Below, piece after piece: positions 32,327 through 37,484 of a DNA stretch of 64,000 nucleotides; the first letter of the stretch is position 1, and every line of letters starts with the position of its first letter. The DNA is from Methylococcaceae bacterium (GTDB lineage Bacteria > Pseudomonadota > Gammaproteobacteria > Methylococcales > Methylomonadaceae). The DNA is taken from assembly GCA_050303415.1 (NCBI GenBank), contig JBNLBS010000019.1:16545-80544 (forward strand), in the 5' to 3' direction. Under the pieces are notes generated by a model. That model did not search any database. It was not told where the DNA came from and was given only the letters and a program-made list of their open reading frames with translations. The position numbers and the translations under genes were made by a program.

Positions 32327-32920
32327 TTAATCCATTCGATTAAGCGCTGAGCTTAATGTTTTTACTGTTTCCAATACCAGTTTACGTTGTGCTTGATCCA
32401 AGGATGAATATAAGGTCATCAGTTCGCGTATATCTTCCGGAAATGACAAGCACAATGGATCGTGCTCAACATGCTGTTCATCCATCCAGCCCTTAGGAAG
32501 TGAAAAATGACTTTCATATTTTCTCGCAATGGTTCTGGAGATGGTTTTAAACGGGTTATCAATAAATAACAAAAGTTTATCAATATCGATGTCTAAAGAG
32601 TGTACGAATTCATTTAATTTTTTTTCCTGGTCTTTGATTTCTTCATAACTATTACACAGGTTTTGATGCCGGATGGCCTGCAGATCCCTGGCATTGGGCC
32701 GAATAGGTCCGAGCCCGAACATCAGCCAGCAGGGTGAACTTTGTGTGGCTTTGGCAATTCGTAATATATCATCCGGCCCCGGGGTTGATATACCGGCTTC
32801 ATAATTACCGATTCGTGATGCGCTCCAGCCCGGTATTTGTTCCAATAGCGCAGCCTGAGTATTAAGCCCGGCCATTTTTCTAGCCATTTTTATCCGTGCC
32901 GCAATCGTTTTTTCGCTCAT
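32327..32920 (-). CDS. XRE/Cro-CI-family HTH transcriptional regulator with unrecognised ~140-aa C-terminal domain; start probably MSEKTIA at 32920
   Basis: HTH_XRE pattern IAARIKMARKMAGLNTQAALLEQIPGWSASRIGNYEAGISTPGPDDILRIAKA. Confidence 0.7.
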   Translation of the reverse strand: MSEKTIAARIKMARKMAGLNTQAALLEQIPGWSASRIGNYEAGISTPGPDDILRIAKATQSSPCWLMFGLGPIRPNARDLQAIRHQNLCNSYEEIKDQEKKLNEFVHSLDIDIDKLLLFIDNPFKTISRTIARKYESHFSLPKGWMDEQHVEHDPLCLSFPEDIRELMTLYSSLDQAQRKLVLETVKTLSSALNRMD

Positions 32921-32999
32921 AATTTTGCTTTTTAACCTTGGTGTGAACAATCAATTCATTTATTGGCACAACATTTTACAAGAAACTTGAAAAAAAATA

Positions 33000-33027
33000 T
33001 TGACAATCTTGATTTTAATTTTATAAT
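33000..33027 (+). promoter_or_regulatory. Near-consensus sigma-70 promoter TTGACA-16 nt-TATAAT with upstream A-tract
   Basis: TTGACA 33000-33005, TATAAT 33022-33027, AAAAAAAAT UP-like element 32991-32999; divergent from XRE gene. Confidence 0.55.
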
Positions 33028-33034
33028 GCCACCA

Positions 33035-33248
33035 ACATTTAATTTATTAGGATTATTCCCTGATGACTTTTAACAACGGAAAACTAAATATACGCAAGCA
33101 GCCGGCAATAGCAATGCTTTATACATTGCATGCTGTTTGTTACAGGTTGAGTTAGGTCTTCCGTTTCAGGAAGGCCGTGCAGTTGCCTTCCAACTTATTA
33201 AAGTTTCAGTAGAAACCCCGGTTGGATCTCTGCCAACCGGGGTTTTTT
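33035..33248 (+). ncRNA. Candidate small transcript (sRNA or mRNA for a 28-aa peptide MTFNNGKLNIRKQPAIAMLYTLHAVCYRLS) ending in a strong rho-independent terminator
   Basis: Consensus promoter upstream. Internal hairpins are present. Terminator AAACCCCGGTTGG-atctctg-CCAACCGGGGTTTTTTATT lies at 33213-33250. Confidence 0.3.
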
Positions 33249-33530
33249 ATTGCCCAAGGACAGGCTACCTACTTTAACCGTTAGTTCTTGAGGTAGATTT
33301 GTCAGTCAGGTTTTGGATGCACTTAACGTGACCGGTATCAGCCTGACCGCAGAATTCAGGTAACTGACATGATTGCAAAAAGCTTGTTGTTATAACTAAA
33401 CATTAATCATCGATAATCCGATGTACCGAATTGGACGGATGCTGTTAATCCAGCGGTTCAGGTTCTGTATACCTGTCCGGCGCACGATACATTTTGTTGA
33501 CTGTGTACCCGATTAATAGTGGTTCAATAA

Positions 33531-33603
33531 CTCGAGGATAGCTCAATGGGTAGAGCGGTTGACTCATAATCAACTTGTTAAGGGTTCAAGTCCCTTTCTT
33601 CGA
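33531..33603 (+). tRNA. tRNA-Met (anticodon CAT)
   Basis: Manual cloverleaf folds in full: 7-bp acceptor TCGAGGA/TCTTCGA with one G-U pair, D-arm GCTC-AATGGGTA-GAGC, anticodon stem GTTGA/TCAAC with loop CTCATAA, T-arm AAGGG-TTCAAGT-CCCTT. CCA is not encoded. Confidence 0.7.
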
Positions 33604-33606
33604 TCC

Positions 33607-33674
33607 TGGAAAAGTAGCTCTTGGTGAGCCCGGATGATAAATCCGTTTATGTAGGTTCGAATCCTACCTTTTCA
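33607..33674 (+). other. Degenerate tRNA-like element: intact acceptor, T-arm GTAGG-TTCGAAT-CCTAC, but D-loop and anticodon loop only 5 nt each; 3 nt downstream of tRNA-Met
   Basis: Manual folding: GGAAAAG...CTTTTCA acceptor with 1-72 mismatch, D GCTC-TTGGT-GAGC, AC-stem CGGAT-GATAA-ATCCG; 68 nt, too short for a canonical tRNA. Confidence 0.35.
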
Positions 33675-34005
33675 CTTTTAACCTGCAACACAGGTTTATT
33701 TTGATCTTCGGATCGTAGGGTCGGCGCCAGTCGGCGAATATGGAGTTTGTTTGACAAAGGATGTTGGAGACAACGGCGTATTGGCTTTGCATGGTGTCAG
33801 CCGGATAAAGTTCAGAACAGTTTATTGATACAGGTCCATTCGATGGGCGCGCTTGACAGGATGTCCACATCAGCAAACAGGTCTTTACTTTTTCCGCCAG
33901 ACAACATCCGCCAATAGGTCGTGGCGCCGAACCTAAATTTTTACCAATAAGGATTTAAACAATAATACTGCCTTAAAAGGCAACAAAAAGGGAATGGAGG
34001 GAACA

Positions 34006-35145
34006 ATGTTTATCAAACGATTTATCATTGCCGAAAATGAACGCGGTTTGTTTTTTCACAACCGGACTTTACAGGACATTATGGAATCCGGCGTCTACAC
34101 CTTTGTCGATTGGCGCAACCGGATTAAAGTCGAAATTTTCGACTTGAACGAACCGGTTTTTAAACACAGTCTGGAGGATGTGTTGTTAAAGCAGCACGAG
34201 GATTTATGCAAAACCTATTTCCAGGTCATCCAGCTGAATGAAAACCAAGTAGGTTTGGTCTACCGCAACGGCCTATTATCTGAGGTGTTACCGCCTTCTA
34301 CCAGAACGTTTTACTGGAAAGGTTTGATTGATATAGACGTTGAAGTCATCGACATTAAATCCGATTTTCAATTGGATGCAGACAAGACCCGGTTATTGAC
34401 CCGTGTGCGAGATGCTGCATTGGTCAGGGTTTTGGCTAACTACATCACTGTTGCCGAAGTGGCGGACCAGCATGTCGGTTTATTGATTGTCGACGGTCAG
34501 TTGATCAAGGAATTACAGCCTGGTGTCTATGCATTTTGGCGTTTCAACCGCTCGATTAAAGTCGAAATGGTCGATAAACGGGTTCAAATGATGGAAGTCT
34601 CAGGTCAGGAAATTTTGACCGGAGACAAAGTGTCATTACGAATCAATCTGTCAGTGGCCTTTCAAATACAGGATGCGGTGAAAATACGTTCAGCATTCAA
34701 GGATATGTTCGATTACTTGTACCGCGAATTGCAATTCGGTTTACGACAAGCGGTAGCCGGTAATACGTTGGATAATTTATTAGCGGAAAAAGGTTCGGCC
34801 GAACAATGTGTATTTAAATACATTTTGGAAAGGATTCAAGATTGCGGTATTCGCTTTATTACAGTCGGTATTAAAGACATTATTTTGCCGGGTGATATGA
34901 AGTCGATTTTAAACCAGTTAGTGGAGGCGGAAAAACAGGCTCAGGCCAATGTTTTAAAACGCCGCGAAGAAACCGCAGCAACCCGGTCATTGCTGAACAC
35001 TGCAAAATTGATGGATGAAAATCCAACTTTAATGCGTTTGAAAGAGCTGGAGGTTTTGGAAAAAGTCACCGGCAAAATTGACCGCATGACCGTTTTCGGC
35101 GGTTTGGAAGGTGTCTTAAAAGATACCGTTAAAATCAATGTGTAA
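34006..35145 (+). CDS. SPFH/band-7 (stomatin-prohibitin-flotillin) domain protein. Its N-terminus has two extra tandem copies of the SPFH N-terminal beta-unit. Start ATG 34006 after GGAGGG
   Basis: C-terminal LRINLSVAFQIQD...ITVGIKDIILPGDMKSILNQLVEAEKQAQANVLKRRE SPFH core is present. Three internal repeats begin ERGLFFHN..., ENQVGLVYRNG... and DQHVGLLIVDG..., each followed by G-Y-F-W and the [IV]KVE/DVEV motif. Confidence 0.7.
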   Translation: MFIKRFIIAENERGLFFHNRTLQDIMESGVYTFVDWRNRIKVEIFDLNEPVFKHSLEDVLLKQHEDLCKTYFQVIQLNENQVGLVYRNGLLSEVLPPSTRTFYWKGLIDIDVEVIDIKSDFQLDADKTRLLTRVRDAALVRVLANYITVAEVADQHVGLLIVDGQLIKELQPGVYAFWRFNRSIKVEMVDKRVQMMEVSGQEILTGDKVSLRINLSVAFQIQDAVKIRSAFKDMFDYLYRELQFGLRQAVAGNTLDNLLAEKGSAEQCVFKYILERIQDCGIRFITVGIKDIILPGDMKSILNQLVEAEKQAQANVLKRREETAATRSLLNTAKLMDENPTLMRLKELEVLEKVTGKIDRMTVFGGLEGVLKDTVKINV

Positions 35146-35172
35146 CTATCAGATCTTCTTGGTTAAGCACCA

Positions 35173-35193
35173 TTGCAGTGTTAAACACTGCAA
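35173..35193. promoter_or_regulatory. 21-nt perfect palindrome TTGCAGTGTTaAACACTGCAA in the SPFH-rtcB spacer, followed by a second GC hairpin (GACCCGGGcaatggGGCTCGGGTC)
   Basis: Read directly from sequence. Confidence 0.4.
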
Positions 35194-35260
35194 ACTGATT
35201 TGTTACATAGAGCAGGAATAAGACCCGGGCAATGGGGCTCGGGTCGATGAGGATAAGATT

Positions 35261-36457
35261 ATGCCTATAAAAATGAAAATGACAAAAGGCAAGGTACCGG
35301 TCAAAGTTTGGACCGAAGATATTGAATACGGTGCCATTCAGCAATTATGCAATATCGCGCAAATGCCGTTTATCCATAGTCATGTTGCGGCCATGCCTGA
35401 TGTGCATCAGGGGATTGGCGCAACCGTGGGTTCGGTGATACCGACCAAGGGCGCCATTATACCTACCGCAGTGGGTGTTGATATCGGCTGCGGAATGAAT
35501 GCGGTCAGGTTAACGCTTAAAGCTGAACAATTACCGGACACTCTAAAACCGGTGCGTAACGCCATTGAAGCGGCCGTACCTGTCGGCTTTGCCATGCATA
35601 ACAAAGATATGGCCAGACATTCGACCATTATTGCTTTGGCCGAACCATTGGGCCGATTACAGGAAAAGCATCCGGCGATCAAAAAAATGCAGAAAAAGCC
35701 ATTTCAAACCTGGGTTAGACAACTGGGTACTTTGGGTGGCGGCAACCATTTTATTGAACTGTGCCTGGATGAAAGCAACGACGTCTGGATTATGCTGCAT
35801 TCCGGCAGTCGGGGTATTGGTAATGCGATCGGACGTTACTTTATCCAGTTGGCCAAAAAAGATATGGGGCAACAACTGGGACATTTACCGGATAAGGATC
35901 TGGCCTATTTTACTGAAGGTGCACAATACTTTGAGGATTATGTCGAAGCCGTGCATTGGGCGCAGGATTATGCCATGTGGAATCGCAGGGAAATAATGCG
36001 TTCGATAGTTGATGCATTGAAAGACGTCCTGCCGCGATTTCAAGTCAGCAAGGAAGCGATTAATTGCCATCATAATTATGTTGCGCTCGAACAGCATTTC
36101 GGGGAACAGGTTTATCTGACCCGCAAAGGGGCGATCAGTGCCGGCCAAGGCGAGCTGGGTATTATTCCCGGCAGCATGGGGGCCAAGTCCTATATCGTTC
36201 GGGGTAAAGGTTGTGCCGCTTCATTTCATTCCTGCTCACATGGTGCTGGCCGGGTAATGAGTCGTTCACAGGCCAAAAAACGCTACAGTTATCGGGATGT
36301 CGAAGCGCAGACTGAAGGCATTGAATGCCGAAAAGACAGCGGCGTTATCGATGAAATTCCGGCGGCCTATAAGGATATTGATCACGTAATGGAGAACCAA
36401 TCAGACTTGGTTGAGATTGTACATACCCTGAAACAAGTCGTTTGCGTCAAAGGATAA
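35261..36457 (+). CDS. rtcB: RNA-splicing ligase RtcB (3'-phosphate/5'-hydroxyl RNA ligase)
   Basis: Conserved metal/GTP-binding residues pattern: VGVDIGCGM, GGGNHFIE, HSGSRG, CHHNY, full length 398 aa. Confidence 0.9.
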   Translation: MPIKMKMTKGKVPVKVWTEDIEYGAIQQLCNIAQMPFIHSHVAAMPDVHQGIGATVGSVIPTKGAIIPTAVGVDIGCGMNAVRLTLKAEQLPDTLKPVRNAIEAAVPVGFAMHNKDMARHSTIIALAEPLGRLQEKHPAIKKMQKKPFQTWVRQLGTLGGGNHFIELCLDESNDVWIMLHSGSRGIGNAIGRYFIQLAKKDMGQQLGHLPDKDLAYFTEGAQYFEDYVEAVHWAQDYAMWNRREIMRSIVDALKDVLPRFQVSKEAINCHHNYVALEQHFGEQVYLTRKGAISAGQGELGIIPGSMGAKSYIVRGKGCAASFHSCSHGAGRVMSRSQAKKRYSYRDVEAQTEGIECRKDSGVIDEIPAAYKDIDHVMENQSDLVEIVHTLKQVVCVKG

Positions 36458-36506
36458 GCCGGATGTTCGGTTGGGCATCCGGTTTTATTGCAACAGGAAA
36501 ATTGTT

Positions 36507-37484
36507 ATGAAACTGGAAACTATTAAAGAAATTATTGAAATCATGCCTAAAGGTAAAACCAGATTTCACTATTTTAAAGATCGCTACGCTTTAATGTTGT
36601 TATCCGATTTAATTGAAGACGGGATTAAACTTTCCGAGCTTAAGACGACACCTTGGGCAAAACTGTTGAACCGACCGCTGGTTAAAAGCTTGAGCTCCCA
36701 GTGTGGTGACGGTGTGCTTTATAAGCATGATCTGGACAGTATCTGGCCGGATTTTACCAGGCAGTTTTTACTTACATTAAGCCAATGGGGCGGAGAACGG
36801 GCAAGCTGGCAACAAACCTGCCGACATGGCTACAATCTGGTATTGCAACTGAATTTCAGCAATCAGCATCATGCCTTGTTTAACAAACTGCTAAGGCCGA
36901 TGAAACATCATAGCCTACGCAGTTGCGGGCATCCGGTTATGCAGCCGGATGAACGTGAGTTATTTCGGGAAACACTGGCCTGGGCACGTATAGATCTGGA
37001 TTTTGACCGCAATGAAGCCCTGATTGAAGAAATTCAAAACGACTGGCTTAGGAATGCGCTATGGTGGTTGAGTTATGTCAAAAGATGTCAAAAAAATCAA
37101 CGACGGTTACCCGCAAATTACTGTTTGCAGACCGACTTGGAAAAAGTCCAAAGCTATTGCGATAAAGTATTAATGCCATACCGCAAAATGTGGGATGAAG
37201 CGATGTTGGCGGCCAGCATCGATTTTATCTACAAGCAGCTGGGTATAAACGTCATTTATTATCACAGCTACGAAAGCGGCGCCTGGTTAAAGTCCATCTC
37301 ATCTACGCTGCCGCCTCGGTCTTTATATACCGATTTACCTAAGCGCTTTTGTTTTACCTGTACCGAACAGGAGCCGACTTTCCTATCTGAAGATCGGTAC
37401 TTTAGAAACCGTAAACGCAAGGGTAAACACCTAAACTATTACTGGTATAGGATGGATTTGGGAGCTGGTCATGTTACGGCCTAG
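36507..37484 (+). CDS. Hypothetical Cys/His/Trp-rich protein co-transcribed with rtcB (start probably MKLETIKEI at 36507 after AGGAAA)
   Basis: 325 aa, no recognisable motif; CGDG, CRHG, CGHP, CFTCTEQ Cys clusters; 50-nt gap from rtcB. Confidence 0.45.
   Translation: MKLETIKEIIEIMPKGKTRFHYFKDRYALMLLSDLIEDGIKLSELKTTPWAKLLNRPLVKSLSSQCGDGVLYKHDLDSIWPDFTRQFLLTLSQWGGERASWQQTCRHGYNLVLQLNFSNQHHALFNKLLRPMKHHSLRSCGHPVMQPDERELFRETLAWARIDLDFDRNEALIEEIQNDWLRNALWWLSYVKRCQKNQRRLPANYCLQTDLEKVQSYCDKVLMPYRKMWDEAMLAASIDFIYKQLGINVIYYHSYESGAWLKSISSTLPPRSLYTDLPKRFCFTCTEQEPTFLSEDRYFRNRKRKGKHLNYYWYRMDLGAGHVTA

Follow-up and report, generated by a model that had tools for sequence, protein, structure and literature searches.

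An anchor-less SPFH/Band-7 protein with three tandem SPFH1 units, encoded between tRNA-like genes and rtcB in a Methylococcaceae bacterium

Proteins of the SPFH (stomatin/prohibitin/flotillin/HflKC) or Band-7 superfamily typically carry an N-terminal membrane anchor, although not universally, the major vault protein (MVP) being without one. In a 2016 abstract, Burroughs and Aravind are said to have proposed SPFH/Band-7 modules as scaffolding cofactors that act with a novel tRNA-like molecule. Here, we describe a Band-7 gene at 34006..35145 (+) of a 64,000-nt stretch of DNA from a Methylococcaceae bacterium (contig JBNLBS010000019.1, positions 16,545 to 80,544; hereafter "the window", meaning the whole stretch), which encodes three tandem SPFH1 units and stands downstream of two tRNA-like genes and upstream of rtcB. 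An earlier inspection of the letters of this DNA, made without database searches and called here the sequence-only reading, had singled out the gene for its repeated N-terminal part.

Later papers attribute to Burroughs & Aravind 2016 an RNA-repair module in which some bacteria encode RtcB beside a Band-7 protein and a predicted tRNA named "b7a-tRNA" (for band 7-associated; Burroughs & Aravind 2016 as summarised in bioRxiv 10.1101/312249), and "MVP homologs" are described as sharing operons with RtcB (PMC13404743, citing the 2016 work). In the window, the Band-7 gene likewise adjoins a tRNA-like gene and has rtcB in the same cluster, and it very likely belongs to this module. The family is already known and biochemically uncharacterised (our literature search found neither a purification nor a functional assay of a member), and the gene itself is unremarkable within the window.

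Three further systems invite comparison. In Pseudomonas aeruginosa, PaFlo8 (PA14_60630) is placed inside the rtc locus, with RtcR as the reported regulator, in PMC13086221. One of our full-length homologues, P0097 (57% identical along the entire length), bears the source label "PA4582", and the Pseudomonas loci show the same layout as the window, i.e., tRNA-like gene, Band-7 gene, and rtcB. PA4582/PaFlo8 is thus a relative by label and locus description, not by sequence comparison, and its locus differs from the window, where a divergent HTH_3/DicA-like protein is found rather than RtcR and an extra conserved hypothetical gene follows rtcB. Ro60/Rsr and the tRNA-like Y RNA YrlA (rsr-yrlBA-rtcBA operons) likewise represent a proposed pairing of a protein with a tRNA-like RNA cofactor beside RtcB, and the Ro60/Rsr and Band-7 modules are reported to replace one another (bioRxiv 10.1101/312249), although Ro60/Rsr is a TROVE ring with a fold unrelated to SPFH. 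Finally, in an Anabaena trcR mutant, alr0739-alr0740 ("slipin family protein") were derepressed 71- and 42-fold, as were rtcB (77-fold), an HNH gene, and a 26-tRNA trn operon (PMC10272220), and the slipin, rtcB, and HNH genes and the tRNA array are induced under translational stress (PMC10272220, PMC8421152). The slipin gene is co-regulated by a repressor with rtcB, HNH, and a long tRNA array, a set that is physically linked in one of the loci we collected (L081). The likeness of alr0740, a putative family member, to the window gene is one of name and regulation, and the long array of Anabaena contrasts with the two tRNA-like genes of the window.

Three tandem units related to SPFH1

The open reading frame (ORF) at 34006..35145 (+) is intact and encodes 379 amino acids. 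A GGAGG lies six bases 5' of the ATG at 34006, and the N-termini of homologues (MFGLKR or MFIKR) agree with this start, while the alternative ATG at 33994 would add four residues that are absent from homologues. The gene boundaries of the sequence-only reading are thus right, as is its assignment of the product to the SPFH/Band-7 proteins: Pfam Band_7 matches residues 152-322, and these only, with 86.4 bits against a cut-off of 23.6 (E 3e-24), and an alpha/beta SPFH fold followed by a coiled-coil helix, as in the SPFH/Band-7 superfamily (PF01145), is found in the structural model.

We then evaluated the proposed triplication of the N-terminal beta-unit by comparing residues 1-70, 71-145, and 146-215 with each other. 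Smith-Waterman scores between these pieces were 53, 58, and 58, where shuffled partners scored 22-24 +/- 4.2 (z = 7.0-8.4), and in 2000 shuffles the observed scores were never attained. BLASTP between units gave E = 2e-5, 2e-6, and 4e-6, and profile-profile comparison with hhalign, for which 46 full-length homologues were aligned (alignment A1), gave E = 1.2e-6 for units 1 and 2, 2.3e-8 for units 1 and 3, and 1.5e-6 for units 2 and 3, with probabilities of 90-95%. The pairwise identity between units is only 24-33%, which is what might be expected if the triplication were a chance likeness of beta-rich segments. Such an origin, or the alternative that the first 150 residues represent an unrelated domain, nevertheless has next to no probability. 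Chance similarity is ruled out by the shuffle and profile-profile tests, the predicted five-strand topology is identical in all three units, and the same units occur 4-9 times in relatives; as for an unrelated domain, no competing match was found in Pfam, NCBIfam, or PDB sequences, and a known foreign domain in the N-terminal 150 residues was specifically rejected after Pfam and NCBIfam scans returned nothing. The three tandem units are truly related, and the triplication is conserved in the family. In one detail the sequence-only reading needs correction: its segments do begin at residues 12 (ERGLFFHN), 79 (ENQVGLVYRNG), and 153 (DQHVGLLIVDG), but the period is therefore ~67-74 residues, not ~60.

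An AlphaFold2 model built from the same alignment displayed a mean pLDDT (predicted local distance difference test) of 80.1 and a pTM (predicted template modelling score) of 0.56, so that the relative placement and packing of the three units is uncertain, and residues 1-146 modelled separately yielded an unchanged topology (pLDDT 85.2, pTM 0.73). Five antiparallel strands were predicted in each unit (residues 3-46, 72-116, and 147-190), with two short helices after unit 1 (57-71) and after unit 2 (125-144). As the sequence-only reading had stated, only the third unit runs into the SPFH core (194-293), which is followed by long helices (296-338 and 340-359). On the DNA, unit 1 (residues 1-71) corresponds to 34006..34218 (+) and unit 2 (72-146), which carries a conserved YWKG motif, to 34219..34443 (+), both being extra SPFH1-like copies with repeat hidden Markov model (HMM) E-values of 7e-20 and 3e-22, respectively. 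Unit 3 (147-192; 34444..34581, +; repeat HMM E 1e-23) is the canonical SPFH1 beta part, within which the Band_7 match starts. The SPFH2 alpha/beta core (193-295) spans 34582..34890 (+), and the long coiled-coil helices (296-359) and a C-terminal T-V-F-G-G strand region (360-379) together span 34891..35142 (+). Model confidence is low at the C-terminus, where T362, F364, G365, and G366 of the T-x-F-G-G motif are invariant among the 46 homologues.

To characterise the extra units themselves, 69 diverse examples were gathered from homologues (A3). Individually, 14 of the 69 isolated units matched Pfam Band_7 (best E 2.4e-4), and three inspected matches, although sub-threshold, cover profile positions 2-44 of 176, i.e., the N-terminal beta part, in register. 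None of the 69 matched the Vault repeat families of Pfam, and a PDB sequence search with the repeat-unit profile returned nothing significant (best E 0.017 over 24 residues). Since the Band_7 matches are in register and no other significant match was found, units 1 and 2 are, judging from these profiles, duplicated copies of SPFH1 and not a foreign domain. The remainder of the protein resembles stomatin: among PDB profile matches, Pyrococcus horikoshii stomatin (E 1e-27) and human stomatin (E 9e-24) are closest by sequence, and the alignment to the latter extends through the C-terminal strand, up to residue 365. The stomatin core, helix, and C-terminal strand are all retained.

Two features set the protein apart from known stomatins and slipins (P. 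horikoshii PH1511, the human stomatin 16-mer cage, and Escherichia coli QmcA), which have one SPFH1 unit where it has three, and an N-terminal hairpin or transmembrane anchor where it has neither. Stomatin, prohibitin, erlin, HflK/C, and QmcA all carry a transmembrane helix or hairpin, while the vault is an exception among SPFH assemblies in having no membrane association (PMC12624060). The window protein opens directly with beta unit 1, and since it contains no hydrophobic segment (maximum Kyte-Doolittle 19-residue average of 1.07), it is without a transmembrane helix or hairpin. The description of the duplicated region as "membrane-proximal" in the sequence-only reading is hence probably inapplicable.

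Family size, repeat number, and likeness to MVP

Full-length homologues share 46-100% identity with the window protein, are nearly all 379-384 amino acids long, and are named in their sources "slipin family protein", "regulator of protease activity HflC", and, once, "PA4582". With the N-terminal 150 residues alone as query, at least 586 representatives of 50%-identity clusters were retrieved at E <= 1e-3, including 187 at E <= 1e-10, and at least 598 encoding places were detected in a one-genome-per-species scan. The loci kept for analysis derive mostly from Gamma- and Betaproteobacteria, and also from Chloroflexota, Verrucomicrobia, and cyanobacteria, while tblastn against plasmid records identified Burkholderia secondary replicons and some E. 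coli and Citrobacter. The family is thus widespread, with Pseudomonas, Xanthomonas, Burkholderia, and some E. coli and Citrobacter among its carriers. A phage origin was ruled out, with no tblastn match in 50,697 phage records. The architecture had been considered unusual on sequence inspection, and this holds in comparison with textbook SPFH proteins, but it is common in bacteria as the hallmark of a large family.

When the repeat HMM was applied to 163 full-length-looking sequences, three units were found in 144, four in 7, and five in 8. As close relatives are over-represented in this sample, the proportions are rough. The proteins with five units appear to have arisen by recent tandem duplication of a block of two units. 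One relative displayed seven units (P0198, 637 amino acids) and another 8-9 (P0172, 787 amino acids). In a third long protein, P0186 (924 amino acids), the repeat HMM identified two units only within a diverged N-terminal region of ~690 residues, which is too diverged for units to be counted. By length, P0172, P0186, and P0198 are the most vault-like relatives.

Structural searches also pointed to MVP. Among the Foldseek targets listed, MVP was the only solved structure with an alignment spanning the whole window protein. The aligned region comprised 420 columns for human MVP (E 3.4e-9) and 418 for rat MVP, compared to at most 276 for the others. In MVP, small beta-sheet repeats in tandem are followed by an SPFH-type domain and then by a cap helix (PMC12624060, PMC12280208); the window protein has the same parts in the same order, and, like MVP, no anchor. 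No match to the Pfam Vault repeat or MVP_shoulder families was detected at E <= 1 for the window protein, and membership of the MVP family was rejected in the absence of any sequence-level MVP signal in this protein or in the 69 isolated units. Without a Vault sequence match, the protein can be described as built like MVP, not as a member of its family.

tRNA-like genes, rtcB, and other neighbours

The window contains two tandem tRNA-like genes upstream of the Band-7 gene. Gene 1 (33532..33606, +; 399 nt upstream of the Band-7 start), a candidate b7a-tRNA, is the sole tRNA call of ARAGORN within the 64-kb window, scores 68.6 bits against the Rfam tRNA model, and forms a Met-like cloverleaf with a CAU anticodon and no encoded CCA. 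Gene 2 (33608..33675, +; 330 nt upstream) scores 31.4 bits for a gathering score of 29, and has a short D-loop and an aberrant anticodon arm; it was not called by ARAGORN, and its cloverleaf-like fold has a z of -2.8. Across the 78 loci with enough upstream sequence, a same-strand tRNA-like gene was detected upstream of Band-7 in 69 (median distance 375 nt), including tandem pairs in 21 of these 69. The "anticodons" vary between loci, CAU being the commonest, and 13 have abnormal anticodon loops, while the D- and T-arms are strongly conserved; gene 1 of the window aligns with ~30 upstream elements of other loci.

Downstream of the Band-7 gene, rtcB (35261..36457, +; Pfam RtcB E 4e-131), encoding an RNA 3'-phosphate/5'-OH ligase, begins after 115 nt. 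Co-occurrence of the repeat architecture with rtcB, a check suggested by the sequence-only reading, was observed within 5 kb in only 40 of the 80 loci, the constant partner being instead the upstream tRNA-like gene. No substitute downstream partner emerged: the first downstream ORFs of the 22 rtcB-less loci in which one was present share no similarity, and the domains that they encode are heterogeneous (transposase, TPR regulator, AAA, DEAD helicase, PhyH, and Phd antitoxin). Because rtcB-less loci have no other downstream gene in common, the core module is the tRNA-like gene followed by the Band-7 gene.

In the window, rtcB is followed by a third operon gene, a conserved hypothetical ORF of 337 codons (36471..37484, +) without Pfam, NCBIfam, or PADLOC match. 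Its 1236 homologues, none of them named, are 312-348 amino acids long, and since the two closest are 325 amino acids long, Met13 (36507) is a possible start. Homologues adjoin Band-7 or rtcB in L002, L009, L015, and L043, and an unannotated 316-aa gene occupies the same position in L081, a likeness judged by position. PADLOC defence-system models gave no match for the Band-7 protein or RtcB either, and no rtcA homologue was detected among the window ORFs scanned. On the other side, a divergent gene (32327..32950, -) encodes a 207-aa helix-turn-helix (HTH) regulator (Pfam HTH_3 E 4e-6; NCBIfam DicA E 2.4e-10, below cut-off), with homologues (43-54% identity) in the same divergent position in L009, L015, L017, and L026. 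It stands where RtcR stands in Citrobacter and, by published description, in Pseudomonas, and is a candidate repressor of the operon, by analogy with Anabaena TrcR. Overall, 32327..37484 is one RNA-repair or translational-stress module that comprises the HTH regulator, two tRNA-like genes, Band-7, rtcB, and the conserved unknown gene.

Enterobacterial loci depart from this layout. In E. coli STEC639 (L084 5004..6928), a repeat-bearing slipin gene is accompanied by a gene for a nucleotidyltransferase domain-containing protein in place of RtcB, and Citrobacter freundii (L085 2960..6913) encodes a divergent rtcR, the slipin gene, and a nucleotidyltransferase. Since neither ARAGORN nor Rfam (the latter at a permissive threshold on L085 alone) detected an upstream tRNA-like gene, the RNA partner may be divergent or absent in these loci. 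The sole tRNA-like trace is a T-arm-like 15-mer at L085 4808..4822.

Whole tRNA arrays, which resemble the long ones of the Anabaena translational-stress regulon (PMC8421152, PMC10272220), were also observed just upstream of, and on the same strand as, many Band-7 genes, with 5-9 genes in genome loci and 20 in L081 (L081 2249..7645, L003, L006, L010, L012, L030, L051, L053, L069, L073, L074, and L076); the window has no such array. In L081, the array is separated from the Band-7 gene by a gene for an HNH endonuclease, the full order being 20 tRNA genes, HNH, tRNA-like gene, Band_7, PcfJ, an unnamed 316-aa gene, and RtcB. The PcfJ-family protein (PF14284, 475 amino acids; L081 9227..10654) was seen in this one locus, between the Band-7 gene and the gene in the position of the 337-codon ORF. 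Separately, between the HTH regulator and the tRNA-like genes of the window, a perfect sigma-70 consensus promoter (TTGACA, 16 nt, TATAAT; 12/12) is found at 33000..33027 (+), and ~210 nt past it a strong stem-loop with a U-run (roughly 33208..33248, of which the terminator scan listed 33228..33242 only). The 217-nt interval from promoter to stem-loop folds far better than shuffled versions (z -5.0, 0/200), and 33000..33250 (+) may represent a small RNA, or else a leader that contains an ORF of 28 codons. The body of this element is not conserved in the fetched loci, its sole blastn match falling on the terminator stem in the opposite orientation, and its sole Rfam match is weak (His_leader, 26 bits).

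Possible function and alternative explanations

The account that we consider moderately probable as a whole is that the window encodes a cytoplasmic, anchor-less SPFH protein of the RNA-repair Band-7 family, with triplicated SPFH1, that serves as a ring or dome scaffold. In this scheme, the C-terminal two thirds are stomatin-like, and duplication of the five-stranded SPFH1 gave the three tandem copies. By comparison with solved SPFH proteins, the subunits would oligomerise by means of their SPFH2-SPFH2 contacts, coiled-coil helix, and C-terminal strand. The stacked SPFH1 copies may then replace membrane contact and lengthen the wall, like the N-terminal repeats of MVP; we put this cage-wall mechanism forward tentatively, as an analogy. 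The earlier suggestion that the repeats alter oligomer or cage geometry is, on the same analogy, plausible. The resulting soluble scaffold or compartment may hold the tRNA-like RNA and, when translation is under stress or RNase toxins attack, present RtcB with cleaved tRNA or rRNA, with the tRNA-like RNA acting as a cofactor, decoy, or specificity element in RtcB-dependent repair. RtcR would control expression in some lineages, and in the window this role probably falls to the divergent HTH repressor. A bolder version, in which these proteins build soluble vault-like cages or half-cages ("bacterial mini-vaults") with a wall height set by the number of SPFH1 copies (3 to at least 9), enclosing or organising tRNA-like RNA and RtcB, and in which SPFH1 duplication was the evolutionary route to the eukaryotic vault wall, seems rather unlikely.

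Several observations weigh against the scaffold account. Ring or cage formation rests on analogy, the packing of the three units in the structural model is uncertain, and the extra units are acidic (pI 5.85 and 5.17), which does not suggest that they bind RNA directly. In half of the 80 loci, rtcB is not within 5 kb. In the literature, the b7a-tRNA was without experimental validation as of 2018 (bioRxiv 10.1101/312249), and in the one deletion study, loss of paFlo8 had no effect in assays of growth, virulence factors, motility, biofilm, or oxidative stress (peroxide), RNase toxins and translation inhibitors not being among the assays described in the accessible text (PMC13086221).

Two alternative explanations were weighed against the same evidence. 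The beta units may be ligand-binding modules that dock the tRNA-like RNA, a damaged tRNA, or a partner, in which case the repeat number would reflect valency and no closed cage would be needed. This could be expected from the variable repeat number among relatives, from the upstream tRNA-like genes, which number one or two and are sometimes accompanied by entire tRNA arrays, and from the functionally analogous Ro60/Rsr, which is described as acting by binding the tRNA-like Y RNA (bioRxiv 10.1101/312249). We nevertheless regard it as unlikely, as the acidic extra units display no RNA-binding motif or domain recognisable in Pfam scans or the PDB profile search, and the ring-forming elements of stomatin are all retained.

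Quite improbable in our view is that the protein represents an ordinary membrane-associated slipin, in which extra SPFH1 copies add membrane-binding surface, and which organises microdomains or regulates a membrane protease. The closest solved relatives (stomatin, QmcA, and HflK) are indeed membrane proteins, hydrophobic SPFH1 residues contact the membrane in canonical SPFH proteins (PMC12624060), and the source names "regulator of protease activity HflC" and "membrane protease subunit" suggest such a role. However, the protein has no transmembrane or hairpin segment, and it falls far below the equivalog level of HflK and HflC (TIGR01933, 27.9 vs 159.4 bits; TIGR01932, 20.2 vs 134.4 bits). In addition, the four neighbouring ORFs that were scanned include neither NfeD nor a protease: unlike the slipins of stomatin-NfeD operons, its scanned neighbours are the HTH regulator, RtcB, and the domain-less protein, and across loci the conserved partners are the tRNA-like gene, RtcB or a nucleotidyltransferase, and RtcR.

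For the window, the practical outcome is the annotation of 32327..37484 as a single module. For the family, the natural variants with 3, 4, 5, 7, and 8-9 repeats offer a direct route to establishing whether SPFH1 copies act as stackable wall segments. More broadly, the family ties together the function of SPFH assemblies away from membranes, the role of the tRNA-like RNAs encoded next to RtcB, and the origin of the vault architecture.

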